Below, in pieces: positions 1 through 29,613 of a stretch of DNA of 29,613 nucleotides. The notes beneath the pieces were generated by a model. It did no database searches. It had not been told where the DNA came from and saw only the letters and a program-made list of their open reading frames with translations. Positions within the stretch are counted from its first letter, which is position 1. Each line of letters starts with the position of its first letter. Origin of the DNA: Myxococcota bacterium (GTDB lineage Bacteria; Myxococcota_A; Polyangia; Polyangiales; Sandaracinaceae); the NCBI GenBank assembly GCA_036149055.1, contig JAYZQJ010000257.1, forward strand, positions 1-29,613, in the 5' to 3' direction. The translations under genes were made by a program, and so were the position numbers.

Positions 1-495
1 CGCTCCGGGTGCTCCGCACCCTCCGCAGTGACGGGTCAGCCGGCTCCGCGGGGCCCCCCCACCCAATTGCCGGCGACCTCGCTTCGCTCGTCGCCGGTGT
101 CCCGCGCTCCGCGCGTGAGCCACGCGGCTCGCGCTCGCGCTTTGCGCGAGCTGGCCGCCCGCTGCCGCGGGGTCGAACGGGCGCGGTGGCGCGTGCGGCG
201 ACCTCGCTGCGCTCGTCGCCTGCCGTGTTCGTCTCGGCGACTTTGCTGCGCTCGTCGCCTCTGGGTGGCGCGTGGCGACCTCGCTTCGCTCGTCGCCTTC
301 CGTGTTCGTGCGAGCTGGCCGCCCGCTGCCGCGGGGTCGAACCGGGAGGGGGGGGCGTGGCGACCTCGCTGCGTTCGTCGCCTGCCGGTTCGTGCGGCGA
401 CCTCGCTGCGCTCGTCGCCTGCCGTGGCCGTGCGGCGACCTCGCTGCGCTCGTCGCCTGCCGTGGCCGTGCGGCGACCTCGCTGCGCTCGTCGCC
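1..495. repeat. Modular REP/BIME-like hairpin element, copy 1 (truncated at the window start), with an array of 24-bp palindromes
   Basis: Positions 1-~180 align with 22456-~22630. There are eight copies of GGCGACYTCGCTKCGCTCGTCGCC (two with a single mismatch) starting at 72, 197, 236, 274, 359, 396, 434 and 472, with a period of about 38 bp in the runs. Confidence 0.9.
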
Positions 496-632
496 TGCGG
501 TCGTCTGTCGCCTGCGGTCGTCTGGGGCAGTCGACGTGGCGGGCGGGTGGGGCGGCGGCATCGTTTTCGAGCGCTCGAGTTCGACGTGTCGCCGGGCGGG
601 GAGGCGCGGCGTCGAGTACACTGCGACCGCAG

Positions 633-5750: not shown

Positions 5751-7513
5751 CCGTCAGCCCGCTATCCGACTACCAGGCGCAGAAGAGCGACGTCCTTTCC
5801 TCGCTGCGCGAGGTCGCGGCGCTCGCCGAGGACGCCGGCGCCAAGTCCCTCGCCGACCGGCTCCGGGGCGACCGCATCCCGCGCCTCGACGAGGAGCGCT
5901 TCCATCTGGTCGTGCTGGGCGAGTTCAACCACGGCAAGACGACGTTCGTGAACGCGCTGCTCGGCGCCCCGGTGCTGCCGACCGGCGTGACCCCGACGAC
6001 CGCCGTCATCCACCACGTGGTGCACGGCGAGACCCCGCACGCCAAGGCGGTGGGCGCGAACGCGGAGCGCGACGTCCCGGTCGAGCAGGTCGCCGACTAC
6101 GAGGTCGGGGGCAAGGCGGCCGAGGAGGAGGTCCGCTACCTCCAGGTCGACTACCCGGCGGCCATCCTCGAGGGCGGCGTGGTCCTGGTCGACACCCCCG
6201 GCGTCAACGACCTCAACTCGACGCGCGCCGAGATCACCTACAGCTACCTGCCGAAGGCGGACGCGATCCTCTTCCTGCTCGACGCGGGGCAGATCCTCAA
6301 GGAGTCGGAGCGCGCCTTCATCGCCAACAAGCTCCTGGCGCAGTCGCGCGACAAGGTGATCTTCGTCATCAACAAGATCGACCTGCTCGACGAGGAGGAG
6401 CGCGAGGAGGCGCTCGCCTACGCGCGCGGTCACCTGGCCCGGCTGGTCGACGAGCCGCGGGTCTACGCGGTCAGCGCGGAGAAGGCGCTCGAGGGCGACC
6501 TCGACGGCTCCGGCCTGGCGGCGCTCACCGGCGAGCTGCGCACCTACCTGACGGAGGAGCGCGGGCGGGTGCTGCTCGACAACGCCCTCGACGCCGGCCT
6601 GCGCGCCGCGGGCACGCTCGAGCAGAGCATCCGGATCCAGAAGCGCGCCCTCGAGATGGACCAGCAGGAGCTCGAGCGGCGGCTCGAGGCGCTCGAGAAG
6701 GACCTCAGCCACTCCGAGGAGATGGCCGACAAGCGGGAGCGGCAGATCCGCGAGTCGCTCAGCGCGGTGAAGGCCATCGTGCGGCGCGAGACCGAGGAGT
6801 TCGGCAAGCGCTTCGCCCTGGCCATCCCGGGCGAGATCGAGAGCAGCAAGGCCGAGGATCTCAAGCGCTACCTCCCGAGCTTCATGGAGGAGCGCTTCCG
6901 GGCCTTCGCCGACCAGCAGGGCGAGGAGCTCGCCAAGCGGCTCGAGAAGGTCGCCGAGGAGGCCATCGCATTCGTGACCGAGGACGCGCAGGAGCGGAGC
7001 CGCAAGCTCGACGAGCTGCTCGGCGGGACCGGGCCCGAGGTCGACCTGAGCGTCAACACGCTCGCCTACGACGTCGGCGTGATCGCGCTCGGCGCCTTCG
7101 GCATCGGCATCATGGCGCTCTCCAACGTCTTCGTCGGCGGCGCGATGACCCTCGCCGCGCCGGTGCTCGCCTACTTCTTCCGCGGCCGCGCCGACAAGGA
7201 GATGAAGAAGCGCGCGCAGGAGGAGGCGCCCAAGGCCATCGAGGAGGCGGCGAAGAAGCTCGCCGAGGCCTTCGACGCGCAGATCGACGGGTTCGGCGAC
7301 AAGCTCGTCGAGTTCGTGCGCAGCGCGAACGAGGAGGTGACCCGCTCGATCGCCGAGGTCGTGCGCACCGCCCGCACCGCCCGCCAGGAGGGTGACGAGG
7401 AGCTCGAGGAGCTCACCCAGGCCGTCGGCACCTCGATGGGCCGCCTCCGCGCGGTCGCCGACAAGATGGAGACCCTCCGCAAGGCCCTCTGGATCCCGCC
7501 CGCCACCACCTGA
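5747..7513 (+). CDS. Bacterial dynamin-like GTPase
   Basis: G1 GEFNHGKT, G2 PTTA, G3 DTPG, G4 NKID; long coiled-coil stalk; hydrophobic paddle VGVIALGAFGIGIMALSNVFVGGAMTLAAPVLAYFF; ATGA overlap with the M48 gene stop. Confidence 0.9.
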   Translation: MTVSPLSDYQAQKSDVLSSLREVAALAEDAGAKSLADRLRGDRIPRLDEERFHLVVLGEFNHGKTTFVNALLGAPVLPTGVTPTTAVIHHVVHGETPHAKAVGANAERDVPVEQVADYEVGGKAAEEEVRYLQVDYPAAILEGGVVLVDTPGVNDLNSTRAEITYSYLPKADAILFLLDAGQILKESERAFIANKLLAQSRDKVIFVINKIDLLDEEEREEALAYARGHLARLVDEPRVYAVSAEKALEGDLDGSGLAALTGELRTYLTEERGRVLLDNALDAGLRAAGTLEQSIRIQKRALEMDQQELERRLEALEKDLSHSEEMADKRERQIRESLSAVKAIVRRETEEFGKRFALAIPGEIESSKAEDLKRYLPSFMEERFRAFADQQGEELAKRLEKVAEEAIAFVTEDAQERSRKLDELLGGTGPEVDLSVNTLAYDVGVIALGAFGIGIMALSNVFVGGAMTLAAPVLAYFFRGRADKEMKKRAQEEAPKAIEEAAKKLAEAFDAQIDGFGDKLVEFVRSANEEVTRSIAEVVRTARTARQEGDEELEELTQAVGTSMGRLRAVADKMETLRKALWIPPATT

Positions 7514-8265
7514 CGCTCTTCGGTGGCTTTTTGTGCTCGCGCAAAGGCGCGGAGGCGCAAAGGGGCCGGGGGGCGGCGCGGTGGGGGCTGGCCGTCGGTG
7601 ACCTGGCGGCGCTCGGCTCGGCGTCCCCTCGGAGGGCGAGTTTCGGGGGCAACTAATTTCACGCAGAGGTGCAGAGGCGCAGAGGGGCCGGGAGCGCTTC
7701 GGTGGCTATTGTGCTCTCGCAAAGGCGCCAAGGCGCAAAGGGCTCGGGGGGCGGCGGGGTAGGGGCTGGCCGCCGGTGACCTGGCGGCGCTCGGCTCGGC
7801 GTCCCCTCGAATGGCGGGTTTCGGGGGCAACTAATTTCACGCAAAGACGCAAAGACGCAAAGGGGCGCCGGCGGTGTCCGGGTCGGGCGCTCCCGGCTGG
7901 GCTCTTTCCCTCCTCTTCCCTCCTCGTTTCCTCCCTTCCTCGCTTCCTGCGAGTAGGGAGGGGCCGAGGCGGCGGCGGGGTGGGGGCTGGCCGTCGGTGA
8001 CCTGGCGGCACTCGGCTCGGCGTCCCCTCGAATGGCGGGTTTCGAGGGCAACTAATTTCGCGCAGAGGCGCAGAGGCGCAGAGGGGCGCCGGCGGTGTCC
8101 CAGCCGGGCGCTCCCGGCTGGGCTCTTTCCCTCCTCCTCCTCCTCTTCCCTCCTCGTTTCCTCCCTTCCTCGCTTCCTGCGAGTAGGGAGGGGCCGAGGC
8201 GGCGGGGGGAGCCGAGGCGGCGGGAGGAGCCGAGGCGGCGGGAGGAGCCGAGGGGGCGGGAGGAG
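7514..8265. repeat. Modular intergenic tandem repeat: three copies of a ~90-bp core, 8-bp-periodic triplets, two pyrimidine-rich modules and an 18-bp minisatellite
   Basis: The core ends in CAACTAATTTC at 7650, 7828 and 8049 (spacing 178 and 221). The module at 7866-7977 is repeated at 8086-~8205. GGAGCCGAGGCGGCGGGA-type units lie at ~8208-8262. The region sits between convergent genes. Confidence 0.9.
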
Positions 8266-20833: not shown

Positions 20834-20976
20834 CGTCGTCGGGCCCAATTCTGATGCATCGGGGGGACTTTCGCCCGTTTTCGATCGGTCGCGTTGTAGT
20901 CTACGTGCGCGCTGCTATCCCTAGCGCGCGCCGCGGCCACTGGGGGCAATGCGGGGACCAACGAGGACAGGCTAGG

Positions 20977-22398
20977 ATGGCCAGACCGGGGCTCCTTCGA
21001 CCCCACAGCTCGCAGCTCACGCTCCTGCAGCGGCTGTTCGACGCCGGGTGGATCGCGCTCACCCACACCCTCGCGTATTACTTCCACCCGGACGCCCACT
21101 GGGTGACCGACCAGACGGTCGCCACCGGCGGCGCGGTCCTCATCTTCTACATCACGGGGGAGATCGCGGGGCTGTACCAGGCGTGGCGCGGCGTGCCGCT
21201 CGGCCGTCAGATCGCCCGCATCTGGGTGGCGTGGCTGCCGGTGGTGATGGTCCTGCTCGCCTCGGCCTTCCTGCTGAAGACGACCGAGCGCTTCAGCCGC
21301 GTCGCGTCCGGCGGCTGGCTCCTGCTCGCGCCGATCGCGATCACCGTCTGGCGCACCCTGGTGCGCATGTTCCTCCGCCACCTCCGGGCGAAGGGGAAGA
21401 ACCTGCGCACGGCCGCGGTCTGCGGGGCGACCGAGATCGGGATCGAGCTCGCCAACCGCATCCTCAGCTCGCCCCACCTCGGCATCAAGCTCGTCGGCTT
21501 CTACGACGACCGCACGCCCGAGCGCACCGAGCGGGTGAGCATGAGCTTCGGCGGCGTGGTCGGGAAGTTCGACGAGCTGGTCGAGCGGGCGAAGGCGGGC
21601 GACGTCGACCTCGTCTACATTGCGCTCCCGCTCAAGGCGGAGCCCCGGGTCAACGACCTCCTGCGCAAGCTCGCCGACACGACCGCGAGCGTCTACATCG
21701 TCCCCGACTTCTTCGTCTTCGATCTCCTGCACGGCCGCTGGAGCGCGCTCGGCGACGTCCCGGTCATCAGCATCTTCGAGACCCCGTTCTACGGCGTCGA
21801 CGGCTGGCTGAAGCGCATCGAGGACATGGTGCTCGGCACGATCTTCCTCACCGTGGCCGCGCCGCTGATGGCGGTGATCGCGGTGGCGATCAAGCTCAAC
21901 AGCAAGGGCCCGGTCTTCTTCAAGCAGCGCCGCTACGGGCTCGACGGAGAGACGATCGAGGTCTTCAAGTTCCGATCGATGACGGTGGCCGAGGACGGCG
22001 CCGACGTGAAGCAGGCCAAGAAGAACGACCAGCGCGTCACCGCGGTCGGCAAGATCCTGCGGCGCACCTCGCTCGACGAGATCCCGCAGCTCATCCACGT
22101 GGTGACCGGCTCGATGTCCCTCGTCGGCCCGCGCCCCCACGCGGTCGCGCACAACGAGCTCTACCGCAAGAAGATCGCCGGCTACATGCTGCGCCACAAG
22201 GTGAAGCCGGGCCTGACCGGCTGGGCTCAGGTCAACGGCTGGCGCGGCGAGACCGACGAGCTGTGGAAGATGGAGAAGCGGATCGAGCACGACCTCGAGT
22301 ACATCCGCCGCTGGGGCGTGGTGTTCGACCTCAAGATCATCTTCCTCACGGTCTGGGGCGTGCTCTTCGGCGGTAAGGTCCGTCAGAACGCGTATTGA
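20977..22398 (+). CDS. wcaJ: Undecaprenyl-phosphate glucose phosphotransferase (WcaJ-like priming glycosyltransferase)
   Basis: Four N-terminal TM helices, CoA-binding-like domain (VGFYDDR), KRIED, FKQRRYG, FKFRSM, LRRTSLDEIPQL, MSLVGPRPHA, VKPGLTGWAQVNG.RG, DLEYI. Confidence 0.9.
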   Translation: MARPGLLRPHSSQLTLLQRLFDAGWIALTHTLAYYFHPDAHWVTDQTVATGGAVLIFYITGEIAGLYQAWRGVPLGRQIARIWVAWLPVVMVLLASAFLLKTTERFSRVASGGWLLLAPIAITVWRTLVRMFLRHLRAKGKNLRTAAVCGATEIGIELANRILSSPHLGIKLVGFYDDRTPERTERVSMSFGGVVGKFDELVERAKAGDVDLVYIALPLKAEPRVNDLLRKLADTTASVYIVPDFFVFDLLHGRWSALGDVPVISIFETPFYGVDGWLKRIEDMVLGTIFLTVAAPLMAVIAVAIKLNSKGPVFFKQRRYGLDGETIEVFKFRSMTVAEDGADVKQAKKNDQRVTAVGKILRRTSLDEIPQLIHVVTGSMSLVGPRPHAVAHNELYRKKIAGYMLRHKVKPGLTGWAQVNGWRGETDELWKMEKRIEHDLEYIRRWGVVFDLKIIFLTVWGVLFGGKVRQNAY

Positions 22399-22399
22399 A

Positions 22400-22800
22400 T
22401 CTTGCTGGGAGGGGCTTTCAGCCCCTCCCCCCCGCTGCGCCGTCAGACCTGTCTCCGCTCCGGGTGCTCCGCACCCTCCGCAGAGACAGGTCAGCCGGCT
22501 CCGCGGGGCCCCCCCACCCAATTCCGCGCGCCTGCGGCGCGCGAGTCCCGCGCTCCGCGCGTGAGCCACGCGGCTCGCGCGCGCGCGGCGCGCGAGCTGG
22601 CCGCCCGCTGCCGCGGGATCGAAGACGGGAGGTGGCGCGTGCGGCGACTTCGCTTCGCTCGTCGCCTTCCGTGTTCGTCGGATGGTGGCGACTTCGCTTC
22701 GCTCGTCGCCCTCGGGTGGCCCGTTGGGCGGTGGCGACTTCGCTTCGCTCGTCGCCCTCGGTGGTTCGTTGGGGGGGCGACTTCGCTTCGCTCGTCGCCC
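22400..22800. repeat. Modular REP/BIME-like hairpin element, copy 2
   Basis: Starts just after the wcaJ stop; homologous to 1-~300; four GGCGACTTCGCTTCGCTCGTCGCC copies at 22643, 22687, 22733 and 22776; outer stem GACCTGTCTC (22446-22455) / GAGACAGGTC (22483-22492). Confidence 0.9.
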
Positions 22801-22823
22801 TCGGAGTCGGCTTCGGACCGGTC

Positions 22824-22949
22824 TCGGACACGGACTCGGATTCGGTCTCGGATTCGGTCTCGGACTCGGTCTCGGACTCGGTCTCGGTCTCGGTCTCGGT
22901 CTCGGATTCGGTCTCGGATTCGGTCTCGGTCTCGGTCTCGGTCTCGGAG
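22824..22949. repeat. Hexanucleotide microsatellite, TCGG(TC/AC/AT) x ~21
   Basis: Direct count of about 21 tandem 6-mers with degenerate units on either side; intergenic between convergent genes. Confidence 0.95.
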
Positions 22950-22975
22950 TCTGGGACTCGGTCTCGGCGAGGGGC

Positions 22976-25971: not shown

Positions 25972-26073
25972 GCCCCGGCCGGTCGTAGCGCTCGAGCGAG
26001 CGGCTGTGGTCTAATGTGCGCACGCTCGCTCCCGCGGCCGATCCGGCCCGGGGGCAGCGTCGTAAGGGGCCCC

Positions 26074-29000
26074 GTGAACGCGGATGTGACGATGCGGGAC
26101 GCCCTCGCGGTGGCGAGGGTCGAGGAGCTCCGGGGCGTCGGCCCCGACGGAGCCTGCTACGTCACCGACGTCGACGGGCGCCCGGCCGAGGTGTGGCGGC
26201 TCGAGCCAGAGGCGCTCGACGCCGAGGCGCGGCGGCGGCTCTCCGCGCTGCGCGGGCTCGACCACCCGGGGCTGCTCGGGCTGCTGGAGCTGTCCCTCGA
26301 CGAGCCGCGGCCGAGCCTCACCCGGGAGCCGGGGCGGTGGCGCTGGGAGGAGCTCGCCAGCTGGACCGGCGACGCGGGCGCGCTGCGGGCCGGGCTCGCG
26401 CGGCTGGCCGGCGGGCTCGCGGCCGCGCACAAGCTCGACGTGGTGCACGGGGCGCTGGGGCCGTCGTGTCTCGTGGTCGGCGAGGACGGAGCGCCCCGGC
26501 TCGATCTGAGCGGGCTGCGGGTTCGACCGGGGCAGCCGCCCGAGGTCGCGCCCGAGCTCTCCCGGGGCGGGCGCGCGAGCGCGGCGGCGGACGTGTGGGC
26601 GCTCGGGCGTCTGCTGGCGTCCCTCCCCGCGGCGCGCGAGGTCGAGCTCGTCGCCCGCATGTGCGACCCCGACCCGGAGCGGCGCCCGCGGGCGGAGCAC
26701 GTCGCGGAGGCGCTCGGCGCGGCGCCGAAGCCCAAGCTCGCGGCGGTCGGGGAGGGCGACGCGGCCCGCTTCGGCATCCCGGACCGCCTCGGCGCGTACG
26801 CGCTCCAGGAGCAGATCGGGGCCGGCGGCATGGGGCGGGTCTTCCGCGCCCTCGACGTGGCCAGCGGGGGCGACGTCGCGCTCAAGGTGCTGCTCTCCAA
26901 CTGGGCCAAGGACCCGGAGCTGGTCGCGCGCTTCCGCCGCGAGGCGCGGGTGCTCGCGCAGGTGCAGAGCCCCTACGTGGCCCGGTTCGTCGCCGCCAAC
27001 GAGGACGCGGGCTTCCACTACCTGGTGATGGAGCTGGTCGGCGGGCGCTCGGCGGAGGCGCTGCTCAAGGAGCGGCGGCGGCTCGACGTCGACCTCGCCC
27101 TCGGGGTCGTCTGCGACGTGGCCCGCGCGGTCGGAGAGATGCACGCCCTCGACCTCGTGCACCGGGACATCAAGCCGGCCAACATCCTGGTCGACGAGTC
27201 CGGGGCCGAGCCGGTGGTGAAGCTCTGCGACTTCGGCATCGCGCGCGCCATCTCCCCCGAGCCCGAGCAGCAGCTCACCCAGGCCGGGGCGCCCGGCACG
27301 CCGTCCTACATGTCGCCGGAGCAGGTCGAGGGGCGCACGGTGGACGCGCGCACGGACGTCTACGCGCTCGGCGCCACGCTCTACTGCCTGCTCGCGGGCC
27401 GGCCGCCCTTCATCGGCACCGCGCACCTCGTGATGATCTCGCACCTGAGCGAGGATCCGGCGCCGCTCCGTGACCACGACCCTTCCATCCCGCAGGGCAT
27501 CTCGGACGTGGTGATGCGCTGCCTCGCGAAGTCGCCGGACGAGCGCTTCCCGGACGCGACCGCGCTGCACGAGGCGCTCCACGCGGCGTGGCGAGGCGCG
27601 ACCGAGCAGACCCTGGCGCTGCCCCAGACCCACGGGCTCGAGGGCAAGCCCCGGGTCTACGACTTCGCCTGGACGCTGCGCGCCGACCCGGAGGAGCTCT
27701 GGCCGCACGTCAGCAACACCGAGCGGCTCAACCGCGCCGCCGGGCTCGACGACGTGGAGTGGTCGCACGGCCCCGGCGAAGGCTACGTGCAGACCGAGGG
27801 CAGCTTCCGCGCGGCGGGCATGGAGCTGCGCTGGAAGGAGAACCCCTTCGAGTGGGTCGCGCCGCGGCGGCTCGGGGTGGTGCGCGAGTACGTCGCCGGG
27901 CCCTTCGAGTGGCTCCGGAGCACGGTGGAGATGATCCCGCGGCCCGAGGGTGGCACCGAGCTGCGGCACAAGATCGAGATCCGGCCGCGCGGCATCCTCG
28001 GGATCGCGGCGGCCACCGTCGAGGTCGGCATGCGGCTCCGGCGCGGGCTCGAGCGGGTCTACCGCCGCATCGACACCGCCTGCATGACCGCCCGCGAGAG
28101 CGCGCGGCCGGGATCGATCCGTCCGGTCGATCCCTTCGAGCCGCCCGAGCGGGCGACCGAGCGGCTCCGGGAGCGGGTCGACGGGCTGCTCGAGCGGGTG
28201 GTGGAGCGGGGCGGCGATCCGCACGTGGCGGAGGCGCTCGGCAGCTTCGTGTGCACGGCGCCGTCGCAGCGCCTCGGGCGGCTCCGGCCGCGGGCCTGGG
28301 CGCGCGAGAACGGCTTCGAGGAGTCGCTCGTGGTCGACACGCTGCTGCTCGCGGCGGCCGAGGGCGTGCTCGAGGTCATGTGGGACATCCTCTGCCCGAG
28401 CTGCCGCATCCCGAGCGGCATCGAGGAGTCGCTGCGGGCCCTCGGGGAGCACGGCCGCTGCGAGGTCTGCGACCTCGACTTCGACCTCGACATGGCGCGC
28501 TCGGTGGAGCTGGTGTTCCGGGCGCACCCGGCCATCCGGCCCGCGGACGTCGGCGTCTACTGCATCGGCGGGCCGGCCCACTCGCCGCACGTCGTCGCGC
28601 AGGTCCGCCTCGTGCCGGGCGAGCGGTTCGCGCTCTCCCTGGAGCTGGCGCCCGGCCGGTTCCAGGTGACGGGCCGCGGGCTGCCGCAGCGCTGGTCGTT
28701 CACCGTCGACCCGCGCGCGGCCTTCGAGCGGTGGGACCTGCCGCTCCGCGCCGGCGCCTCGCCGGACGTGCCGCGCAGCCTCCGCCCCGGCGACGTGCAG
28801 ATCTTCTTGACCAACGATCTCGACCACGAGGTCGTGGTGCGCCTCGAGCGCGCGACCCTGCGAGACGACGCGGTCACCGCCGCCGACGCGGCCGCCTCCG
28901 CGCTCTTCCGGCAGCTCTTCCCGGACCAGGTGCTCGCGCCCGACCGGCTCGTCGCGATCGCCGACGTCGCGCTCCTCTTCGCGCGGGTGTCCGACGCCCT

Positions 29001-29433
29001 CGATCGCTTCGAGCGCGAGGAGACCGAGGTGCACCGCGAGCTGGTGGCGCTCTCGAGCGAGGTCGAGCAGGCCGCGCACCTCGAGGGGGGCGCGCTGGTG
29101 AAGCTACACGGCGACGGAGTGATGGCGGTCTTCTCGGACCGCGTGGCCGCGGTGCGCGCGGCGCTGCGGATCGCCCGGCCCGACGCCACCGTCGGCCTCG
29201 GCCTCCACGCCGGCCCGGCGCGTATGACCTCGATCGGCGGCCAGCTCGACTACTTCGGCAAGACCCTGCACCTCGCCGAGCACATCAGCCGCGCGGCTCA
29301 CGCGGGGGAGCTGGTGGTGAGCGACGCCCTGCTCGAGGACCCGCGCATGTCCCCGCTCCTCGGCGCGCAGCTCGAGGCGCGTGGGTATCTCCGGGTCGGT
29401 AGCCTGCTCGCCGGTCGGCTCGCCGCGCGCTGA
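26074..29433 (+). CDS. Multidomain Ser/Thr kinase: pseudokinase - kinase - SRPBCC-like - DUF5939-like - degenerate class III nucleotidyl cyclase (start uncertain: 26014, 26074 or 26092)
   Basis: Intact GAGGMG, VALK, HRDIKPAN, DFG, YMSPEQ, DVYALG; upstream degenerate copy VHGALGP..DLS..APE..DVWALG; LWPHVSNTERLNRAAGL; CPSC..CEVC; YCIGGPAHSPHVVAQ; VKLHGDGVMAVF, GLHAGP, LDYFG. Confidence 0.88.
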   Translation: MNADVTMRDALAVARVEELRGVGPDGACYVTDVDGRPAEVWRLEPEALDAEARRRLSALRGLDHPGLLGLLELSLDEPRPSLTREPGRWRWEELASWTGDAGALRAGLARLAGGLAAAHKLDVVHGALGPSCLVVGEDGAPRLDLSGLRVRPGQPPEVAPELSRGGRASAAADVWALGRLLASLPAAREVELVARMCDPDPERRPRAEHVAEALGAAPKPKLAAVGEGDAARFGIPDRLGAYALQEQIGAGGMGRVFRALDVASGGDVALKVLLSNWAKDPELVARFRREARVLAQVQSPYVARFVAANEDAGFHYLVMELVGGRSAEALLKERRRLDVDLALGVVCDVARAVGEMHALDLVHRDIKPANILVDESGAEPVVKLCDFGIARAISPEPEQQLTQAGAPGTPSYMSPEQVEGRTVDARTDVYALGATLYCLLAGRPPFIGTAHLVMISHLSEDPAPLRDHDPSIPQGISDVVMRCLAKSPDERFPDATALHEALHAAWRGATEQTLALPQTHGLEGKPRVYDFAWTLRADPEELWPHVSNTERLNRAAGLDDVEWSHGPGEGYVQTEGSFRAAGMELRWKENPFEWVAPRRLGVVREYVAGPFEWLRSTVEMIPRPEGGTELRHKIEIRPRGILGIAAATVEVGMRLRRGLERVYRRIDTACMTARESARPGSIRPVDPFEPPERATERLRERVDGLLERVVERGGDPHVAEALGSFVCTAPSQRLGRLRPRAWARENGFEESLVVDTLLLAAAEGVLEVMWDILCPSCRIPSGIEESLRALGEHGRCEVCDLDFDLDMARSVELVFRAHPAIRPADVGVYCIGGPAHSPHVVAQVRLVPGERFALSLELAPGRFQVTGRGLPQRWSFTVDPRAAFERWDLPLRAGASPDVPRSLRPGDVQIFLTNDLDHEVVVRLERATLRDDAVTAADAAASALFRQLFPDQVLAPDRLVAIADVALLFARVSDALDRFEREETEVHRELVALSSEVEQAAHLEGGALVKLHGDGVMAVFSDRVAAVRAALRIARPDATVGLGLHAGPARMTSIGGQLDYFGKTLHLAEHISRAAHAGELVVSDALLEDPRMSPLLGAQLEARGYLRVGSLLAGRLAAR

Positions 29434-29443
29434 GGGCGCTGCT

Positions 29444-29613
29444 TCTTGCTGGAGGGTTTGGTGCAAACCCTCCCCCCATTGGGCGAAGCGCCAATGGGGC
29501 CCCCCTCCCGACTCCGTCGGGGCCTCGCGCGCTTCGCGCGCTGGCCCCGCGACCCCAGCGACGGGGCGCTGGGGGCCCTGCGGCTCGCGCTCGCGCTGCG
29601 CGCTCGCTGGCCG
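29444..29613. repeat. Multi-hairpin element related to the copy 1/2 family (truncated at the window end)
   Basis: Consecutive stems GGAGGGTTTG/CAAACCCTCC (29451-29473), CCCCATTGG/CCAATGGGG, CCCGAC-TCC-GTCGGG, GCGCGC-TTC-GCGCGC and CCCCAGCG/CGCTGGGG. It shares TCTTGCTGG..AGGG with the copy 2 start, and GGGGCCCCCC and GCGGCTCGCGCTCGCGCT with copy 1. Confidence 0.8.

Follow-up and report, generated by a model that had tools for sequence, protein, structure and literature searches.

Here I describe a modular repeat that occurs across the Sandaracinaceae and is, on balance, probably a non-autonomous mobile element that an enzyme with its gene at another place copies into Y-TGA-type sites by way of folded single-stranded DNA. 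It is a non-coding, directional repeat of 100-400 bases, present at about 160 places in the host genome with 3-7 different hairpins per unit, and the original prediction of a multi-copy, non-autonomous mobile element is supported by filled and empty sites among relatives. The 24-mer palindrome on which that prediction was built is real and multi-copy, but the repeating unit is larger: the 24-mer is one module of an element tied to stop codons. The window, a stretch of 29,613 nucleotides, is the whole of contig C257 of the host assembly G000 (9.9 Mb, 289 contigs, 73% GC).

Modules and fold of the element

Three copies lie in the window, both outer ones cut by the contig ends (Table 1), and across the G000 assembly 221 of 578 contig ends have an element module within 400 nt. 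An element opens with the T-rich linker and the first hairpin (GGAGGG...CCCTCC), continues with a second hairpin or a long one, the middle hairpins and the core module, and then has between one and eight 24-mers before a terminal module whose last bases are CTCGAG. Complete copies mostly measure about 300 bp, and their left and right ends are unrelated, with no terminal inverted repeats. The terminal module is reached by only 14 of the 55 internal copies; downstream of it the sequence often continues as linker and first hairpin, and tandem junctions carry variable linkers. The conserved hairpin foot reads GGAG, GGCG or GCAG and is preceded by the variable T-rich linker. Two neighbouring features can be recorded in their own right: just downstream of copy 1, a gene with FHA and transglutaminase-like domains (636-1871), and directly 3' of copy 2, a hexamer satellite of about 28 units (22800-22967) that runs towards the 3' end of a convergent DUF2330 gene and resembles satellites adjoining other element copies in G000 and G001.

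Table 1. Element copies and their parts in the window
Feature	Position	Strand	Remarks
Copy 1	1-541	+	5' end cut by contig start; decayed tail about 496-541
Copy 1, second half of long hairpin and G/C box	tip 7-21; box 42-60	+	
Copy 1, core module	146-177 and 310-341	+	plus eight 24-mers
Copy 1, array of eight 24-mer modules	72-495	-	6-bp stem, GA/GA mismatches, GC-GNA-GC tip
Copy 2, insertion site	22396-22398	+	TGA stop of sugar-transferase gene (20854-22398)
Copy 2, T-rich variable linker	22399-22407	+	
Copy 2, first hairpin	22408-22428	+	GGAGGG...CCCTCC; module conserved across family
Copy 2, long hairpin	22430-22508	-	GNA tip, GNA/GNA internal loops
Copy 2, middle hairpins and core module	22526-22623	+	
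Copy 2, terminal array	22643-22799	-	four 24-mer modules, without terminal module
Copy 3, insertion site	29431-29433	+	TGA stop of kinase gene (26014-29433)
Copy 3, linker, first and second hairpin, TNC-capped stems	29434-29613	+	cut by contig end
Copy 3, hairpins	first 29451-29473; second 29476-29499	+	

The first hairpin with its C run was found in 20 of 32 family genomes (the unpublished G023 included), with almost no matches in controls; G019 and the closed genome G003 carry a version of about 105 bp. G000, G001, G003, G004, G013, G017 and G019 are rich in the element, and the genera g6, g7, g2 and g5 are poor in it. A single-module scan found matches in five named MAGs (Myxococcota, Polyangia, Sandaracinaceae or Deltaproteobacteria), and among 401 genomes of the phylum the 13-nt core exceeded its control in G000 (227 vs 28) and G001 (81 vs 36), with a small excess in a few further genomes. 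Weak matches in other relatives were discarded as GC-rich chance; a viral scan yielded 18 loose hairpins, none of which had the full architecture by eye. A sister subtype of 35 copies lies in the opposite orientation, and in the JANQQS MAG (L041-L096) the modules are strung into long arrays that resemble REPINs in that a second terminal hairpin faces inward, as do first-hairpin modules. An Rfam search with the element gave no match, only sub-threshold microRNA entries; a likeness to group II intron domain V/VI, noticed by eye, was dropped. A search of the more recent, open literature by title and abstract likewise found no description of the family.

All 12 described copies of the 24-mer are in place (72-95 to 472-495, and 22643-22799), six with the triplet TTC and six with TGC; the one said to have a stem mismatch is 359-382, whose inner stem is broken, and the unrelated companion stems that also close on TNC are present in the window sequence. 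The geometry had been misread, since the 6-bp stem thought to enclose a TNC triplet actually has 12 nt between its arms, and their minus-strand sequence is GA-GC-GNA-GC-GA with one further base bulged out; the triloop thus closes a 2-bp inner stem, and the proposed GC-GNA-GC core sits inside tandem G·A mismatches, which, to judge from the sequence, may form non-canonical pairs. GGCGAC-N12-GTCGCC occurs 215 times in the genome, against 3-38 times at other spacer lengths from 3 to 19, and the loop triplets, tabulated genome-wide as had been proposed, are not random, with TNC in 202 of 209 copies (at most 1 mismatch; 132 clusters). Across three genomes the outer stems of the 24-mer vary with pairing kept. 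By itself the 24-mer folds no better than shuffles (z about -1); the long hairpin reaches z values of -6.5 on the minus strand and -4.8 on the plus strand.

These folds have a grammar and a strand. On stems of at least 4 bp, sense-strand triloops are TNC in 229 cases and GNA in 2 (shuffles 22 and 10), the 11-nt core GA-GC-GNA-GC-GA occurs within elements 228 times on the antisense strand and never on the sense strand, and the long hairpins of G000 and G001, 52 distinct ones in total, have the antisense tip C(GNA)G in 35 cases and C(GGNN)G in the other 17. Interior loops of the long hairpins are mostly GNA/GNA and the intervening stems vary: GNA loops and GNA/GNA internal loops persist through the turnover of the stems. 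The predicted strand asymmetry of folding, with DNA-type fold rules, was borne out, the antisense strand folding better under DNA parameters in 80 of 92 copies, compared with 73 of 150 controls; under RNA parameters it is favoured as well (73 of 92), so folding energy alone cannot tell DNA from RNA. The rule that GNA lies on the minus strand is not universal and fails for the first and second hairpins of the commonest subtype, where the first has GTG/GGG-type loops on the sense strand and the second, among 106 copies, has sense-strand loops AAA (89) or GAA (14); by eye, the JANQQS MAG has one loop in either orientation. GCGNAGC mini-hairpins are described as very stable in DNA, GC-NNN-GC mini-hairpins as formed by GNA only, and the RNA counterpart of the related 8-mer hairpin GCGAAAGC as far less stable (PMC13037366, a review available in excerpt).

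Stop codons as target and the turnover of junctions

Upstream DNA was sufficient for 174 element starts, and 158 of these have a gene-like in-frame stop whose first base is 5-20 nt away, against a background of 147 in 5000 random positions; the stops are TGA in 148 cases and TAG in 10, the modal distance is 10 nt, and the first hairpin begins about 7 nt past the stop. The target consensus is [not C]-Y-TGA-G, followed by the T-rich linker of 7 nt: position -2 is C in 7 of 142 sites (background 31%), position -1 is Y in 125 of 142 (background 47%), and position +1 favours G. Stop adjacency was found at 39 of 57 starts in G003 and G019, and in 6 of 57 cases in a scan that included the JANQQS MAG, whose matches are mostly array-internal. 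In the sister subtype the terminal TCA is a gene-like stop of the opposite strand in 16 of the 26 copies with both ends. I infer that one target word is usable on either strand and that selection keeps the stop-preserving copies. Strand relative to replichore, which had been suggested as a check, showed no bias (13 of 26 and 25 of 43 leading, with dnaA taken as the origin). At L228, L231 and L225 (G003, G019) the element stands directly after the TCA of a small palindrome bounded by TGA...TCA, which is itself post-stop.

Mobility can be read from orthologous sites. Sixteen G001 loci correspond in G000 to 8 filled, 6 empty and 2 undecidable sites, some of the filled ones holding a different subtype; the G001 orthologue of the copy 2 site (L037) is filled as well, and at one gene end three genomes of two genera all have the element. 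Between G003 and G019, each of the six tested sites holds the element in one species and lacks it in the other, in pairs with messy right junctions that cannot be polarised. A closer comparison drew on a strain whose coding flanks diverge by 0.9%, represented by Ga0310345 contigs of a metagenome assembly. Of the 49 loci given, 46 were scored, as 31 shared filled, 9 flagged empty and 6 without a usable orthologue; by eye, 4 of the flagged loci are filled, and the other 5, filled in this strain, lack the element in G000, one of them holding the sister subtype.

The linker, which adjoins unique DNA, differs at 20 of the 31 shared sites (40 of 214 bases, or 18.7%, versus 0.9% upstream), and this turnover of about 20 times that of the flank means that junctions are likely rewritten in place; the element body differs by 13% between strains, gaps included, a figure that may be inflated by the poor assembly of repeats at contig ends. 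The copy 2 linker is identical in two other samples (X1, X9), and contigs from four sequencing runs include none that skips across the element, the RNA run among them giving no proof of an element transcript. At L417, the sole clean and fully spanned pair, the element lies between a left and a right GA, and the empty allele has a single GA with no deletion, in a target without the G. GA stands at both the left and the right junction in 16 of 17 complete copies, CA at both junctions in 16 of 26 copies of the sister subtype, and the shared 2 bp can be read either as a target-site duplication or as an element end. A pre-existing T-rich target was rejected, since 5 of 6 G000 orthologues of G001 sites and 5 of 5 strain sites are not T-rich (one empty site in G019 has three linker-like bases after TGAG), and the linker thus arrives with the element. 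On the sense strand, linkers contain 462 T, 120 C, 39 G and 6 A, and their words recur, so that they are partly inherited.

The proposed mobilising enzyme and competing explanations

The copying process that I favour would begin with a trans-acting nuclease, HUH-like by analogy, that binds the hairpins and nicks the target at YT-GA, after which the target 3' end would anneal by 2-3 nt to another copy and be extended along its GNA-capped strand; such copying would fix the left junction, leave the right end variable and produce duplicated modules and mosaics. Because the target word is still present, a filled site might be hit again, with replacement of the linker and 5' modules. Copies would persist mainly where the gene keeps its stop: subtypes that end in TCGA would do so behind the stop, and the subtype of opposite orientation would persist since its terminal TCA restores the stop. 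Stop adjacency, target consensus, the shared 2-bp GA or CA, fold grammar, presence/absence polymorphism and linker turnover are the observed parts of this scheme. A bolder proposal, possible but somewhat unlikely, is a new class of element that homes to stop-codon words and re-homes into its own junction, where it would rewrite the 7-nt linker and exchange hairpin modules in place, moved by a single-strand-processing enzyme outside the known transposase families that reads the GNA/G·A zipper structure instead of sequence.

Seven enzyme-family searches and two neighbourhood screens did not find the mobiliser. Genes for TnpB, GIY-YIG, IS110 and resolvases are neither found beside the element nor distributed with it, a Y2 (IS91) search gave no match but was equally silent in the control genomes, and loci L532 and L546 of the enzyme-family screen hold loose palindromic matches. 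Of the two neighbour screens, the one by Pfam, which scanned 94 of 172 ORFs, returned no transposase family, and clustering of 466 ORFs returned generic host genes only among the 25 clusters listed (the largest being kinases and response regulators). An autonomous copy could be missing from the fragmented MAGs, as the host assembly is broken at repeats (the 221 of 578 contig ends given above), or could be too divergent for the profiles.

The same fragmentation would accommodate IS200/IS605- or REPIN-type peel-and-paste by a divergent or transiently present Y1 transposase, an explanation that I consider unlikely although it survives best among the alternatives. It would account for precise insertion 3' of a short word, a similar right-end word and the lack of terminal inverted repeats, and the GAG junctions correspond on the GNA strand to a boundary between C and T, where TnpA-REP is described as cutting single-stranded DNA near hairpins (PMC8266576, in excerpt). 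However, the element has neither a GTAG tag nor a conserved guide 5' of the first hairpin, where the linker is variable, it has no lagging-strand bias, and the L417 target lacks the G. The Y1 genes themselves point the same way: the predicted Y1/RAYT partner was not seen, since 0 of 9 host Y1 matches have modules within 2.5 kb; 7 of the 9 are associated with a different repeat, and the host Y1 families have other flanks and another distribution. The element-bearing genomes G003, G019, G013, G014, G018 and G022 gave no match in a Y1 search, G003 and G019 being complete or nearly so, and the host's main Y1 family as query found nothing in G001, G003, G004, G013, G014, G017 or G019. Among 29 Y1 loci of relatives a single one, an IS200 in G017, has a module (700 bp away), and this is an independent insertion with its own ends.

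Less probable still is a retro-element, in which an antisense RNA with an A-rich tail would be reverse-transcribed from the nicked target in a TPRT-like manner, template jumping producing the tandems. The antisense strand with its fixed end and its purine-rich tail of variable sequence, the truncation of the other end and the variable linkers at tandem junctions fit this, but GNA triloops are a DNA-type motif (PMC13037366, in excerpt), linker words recur and Rfam gave no match. Reverse transcriptases, present in 26 of 32 family genomes, show no link to modules: the 29 family RT loci have a true first hairpin at none, the host's single RT is retron-like by inspection with no module nearby, and the retron region has no similarity to the element apparent by eye. 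DGR-like A-to-N mutagenesis was likewise rejected, as the element body has no adenine-specific hypermutation.

I regard as very unlikely that these are old, mostly static 3'-UTR structures that act on the mRNA by stabilisation or ribosome stalling and are homogenised by gene conversion. The 8 of 14 decidable G001 sites also filled in G000 and the gene end filled in three genomes are in its favour, and so is the position of the first hairpin, inside the 15-nt zone of E. coli REPs (PMC12306157, in excerpt). Against it, the better-folding strand is antisense to the mRNA, the target is sequence-specific, five sites filled in a strain only 0.9% divergent are without the element in G000, and the linker, although at the edge of homology, has a rate of change 20 times that of the flank. 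That the element also acts on host mRNA as a side effect is plausible by analogy, because E. coli REPs within 15 nt of the stop are reported to lower translation (PMC12306157, in excerpt). Equally improbable is integration of a circular form by a recombinase with a 2-bp core (serine or IS110 type), which would suit the GA or CA shared at both junctions and the terminal module that often runs into linker and first hairpin, as expected at the junction of a circle, but which leaves the single-stranded fold grammar, truncated right ends and variable linker unexplained, with no IS110 match in G000, G004, G013, G014 and G017 and no true first hairpin flanking any of 60 IS110 or resolvase loci.

Kinship with known repeats and significance

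MITEs such as ERIC, RUP and Correia are also short and non-autonomous, have a 2-bp duplication-like junction and frequently lie beside stop codons; unlike them, the element has no terminal inverted repeats, is directional and modular, and shares the dinucleotide GA or CA. With IS91/ISCR rolling-circle elements it has in common one fixed end at a short target, another that is variable, and tandems, and it differs from retro-elements (group II introns, DGRs, retrons) in having no known RNA structure, linked RT or A-specific mutagenesis. Dispersed structured repeats are reportedly also known from myxobacteria, in papers of the 1990s on an 87-bp repeat of Myxococcus xanthus and msDNA-like repeats of Nannocystis. 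Non-autonomous derivatives of IS200/IS605 go by the name of PATE. Like such derivatives, as described in excerpts of PMC6006769 and PMC8266576, the element lacks terminal inverted repeats, has subterminal hairpins and inserts 3' of a short word, making no long duplication and having a similar word at its right end; unlike IS200/IS605, its guide position, 5' of the terminal hairpin, is its most variable part, there is no lagging-strand bias, right ends are mostly truncated and no cognate TnpA/TnpB accompanies it. C(GNA)G mini-hairpin tips on one strand are found in the phage G4 origin, ssiA and N4 promoters, and the element shares these tips with single-stranded priming and promoter signals (PMC13037366, in excerpt), but as a dispersed chromosomal repeat.

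Another close likeness is to REP, BIME and REPIN sequences, which in the available excerpts (PMC3733652, PMC6006769, PMC8266576) are also extragenic, multi-copy, lineage-specific hairpins in mosaics, often by stop codons, and are also read as folded single-stranded DNA with mismatches and a strand preference. Unlike REPs and REPINs with their RAYTs, the element has no 5' GT[AG]G (GTAG) or CGTC tag at the hairpin foot and no flanking or co-occurring Y1 gene was found for it; it also differs in having units of 100-400 bp with 3-7 different hairpins, a fixed left junction with a target consensus and a hypervariable linker. My verdict is that it is a variant of REP/BIME-like non-autonomous elements, unusual in that its stop-word target is used on both strands, its junctions turn over rapidly in place and its enzyme is missing.

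Other repeats of these genomes were met along the way. Past the stop of a dynamin-like gene, window positions 7510-8265 hold an unrelated mosaic repeat family with 403 motif matches genome-wide, whose motifs flank a gene at G000:C79 (about 63900-64900) that has a GxxExxY-type motif and likely encodes a cognate nuclease. A multi-copy, divergent Y1 transposase family, patchy in the bacterial family, is represented by G000:C4:48148-48852 and 12 other matches and is flanked by a dispersed 17-nt non-palindromic repeat (68 matches) in both orientations; a second Y1 family is broken at contig ends (the ends of C191 and C144 and the starts of C22, C135 and C185 in G000) and its 5' end has given rise to 7 short non-coding derivatives at other places. 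Short elements with terminal inverted repeats of about 25 bp starting GGGGAC (57 matches, at G000:C7:82210, C13:8092, C23, C58, C81 and others) resemble TIRYT ends (PMC6006769, in excerpt). Also, G003:C1 has eight dispersed RT genes with similar scores and long open frames (e.g., at 6480714 and 1463274), with no comparable RT matches in G019 or G000.

This element family gives direct handles on the question of how REP-like repeats spread through a genome and keep their uniformity: a defined target word, empty and filled alleles in strains 1% apart, junctions that turn over about 20 times faster than their flanks, and a 105-bp version in a closed Sandaracinaceae genome (G003) in which the Y1 search had no match. 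Should the enzyme turn out to be new, it would insert DNA under the guidance of structure and spare genes.
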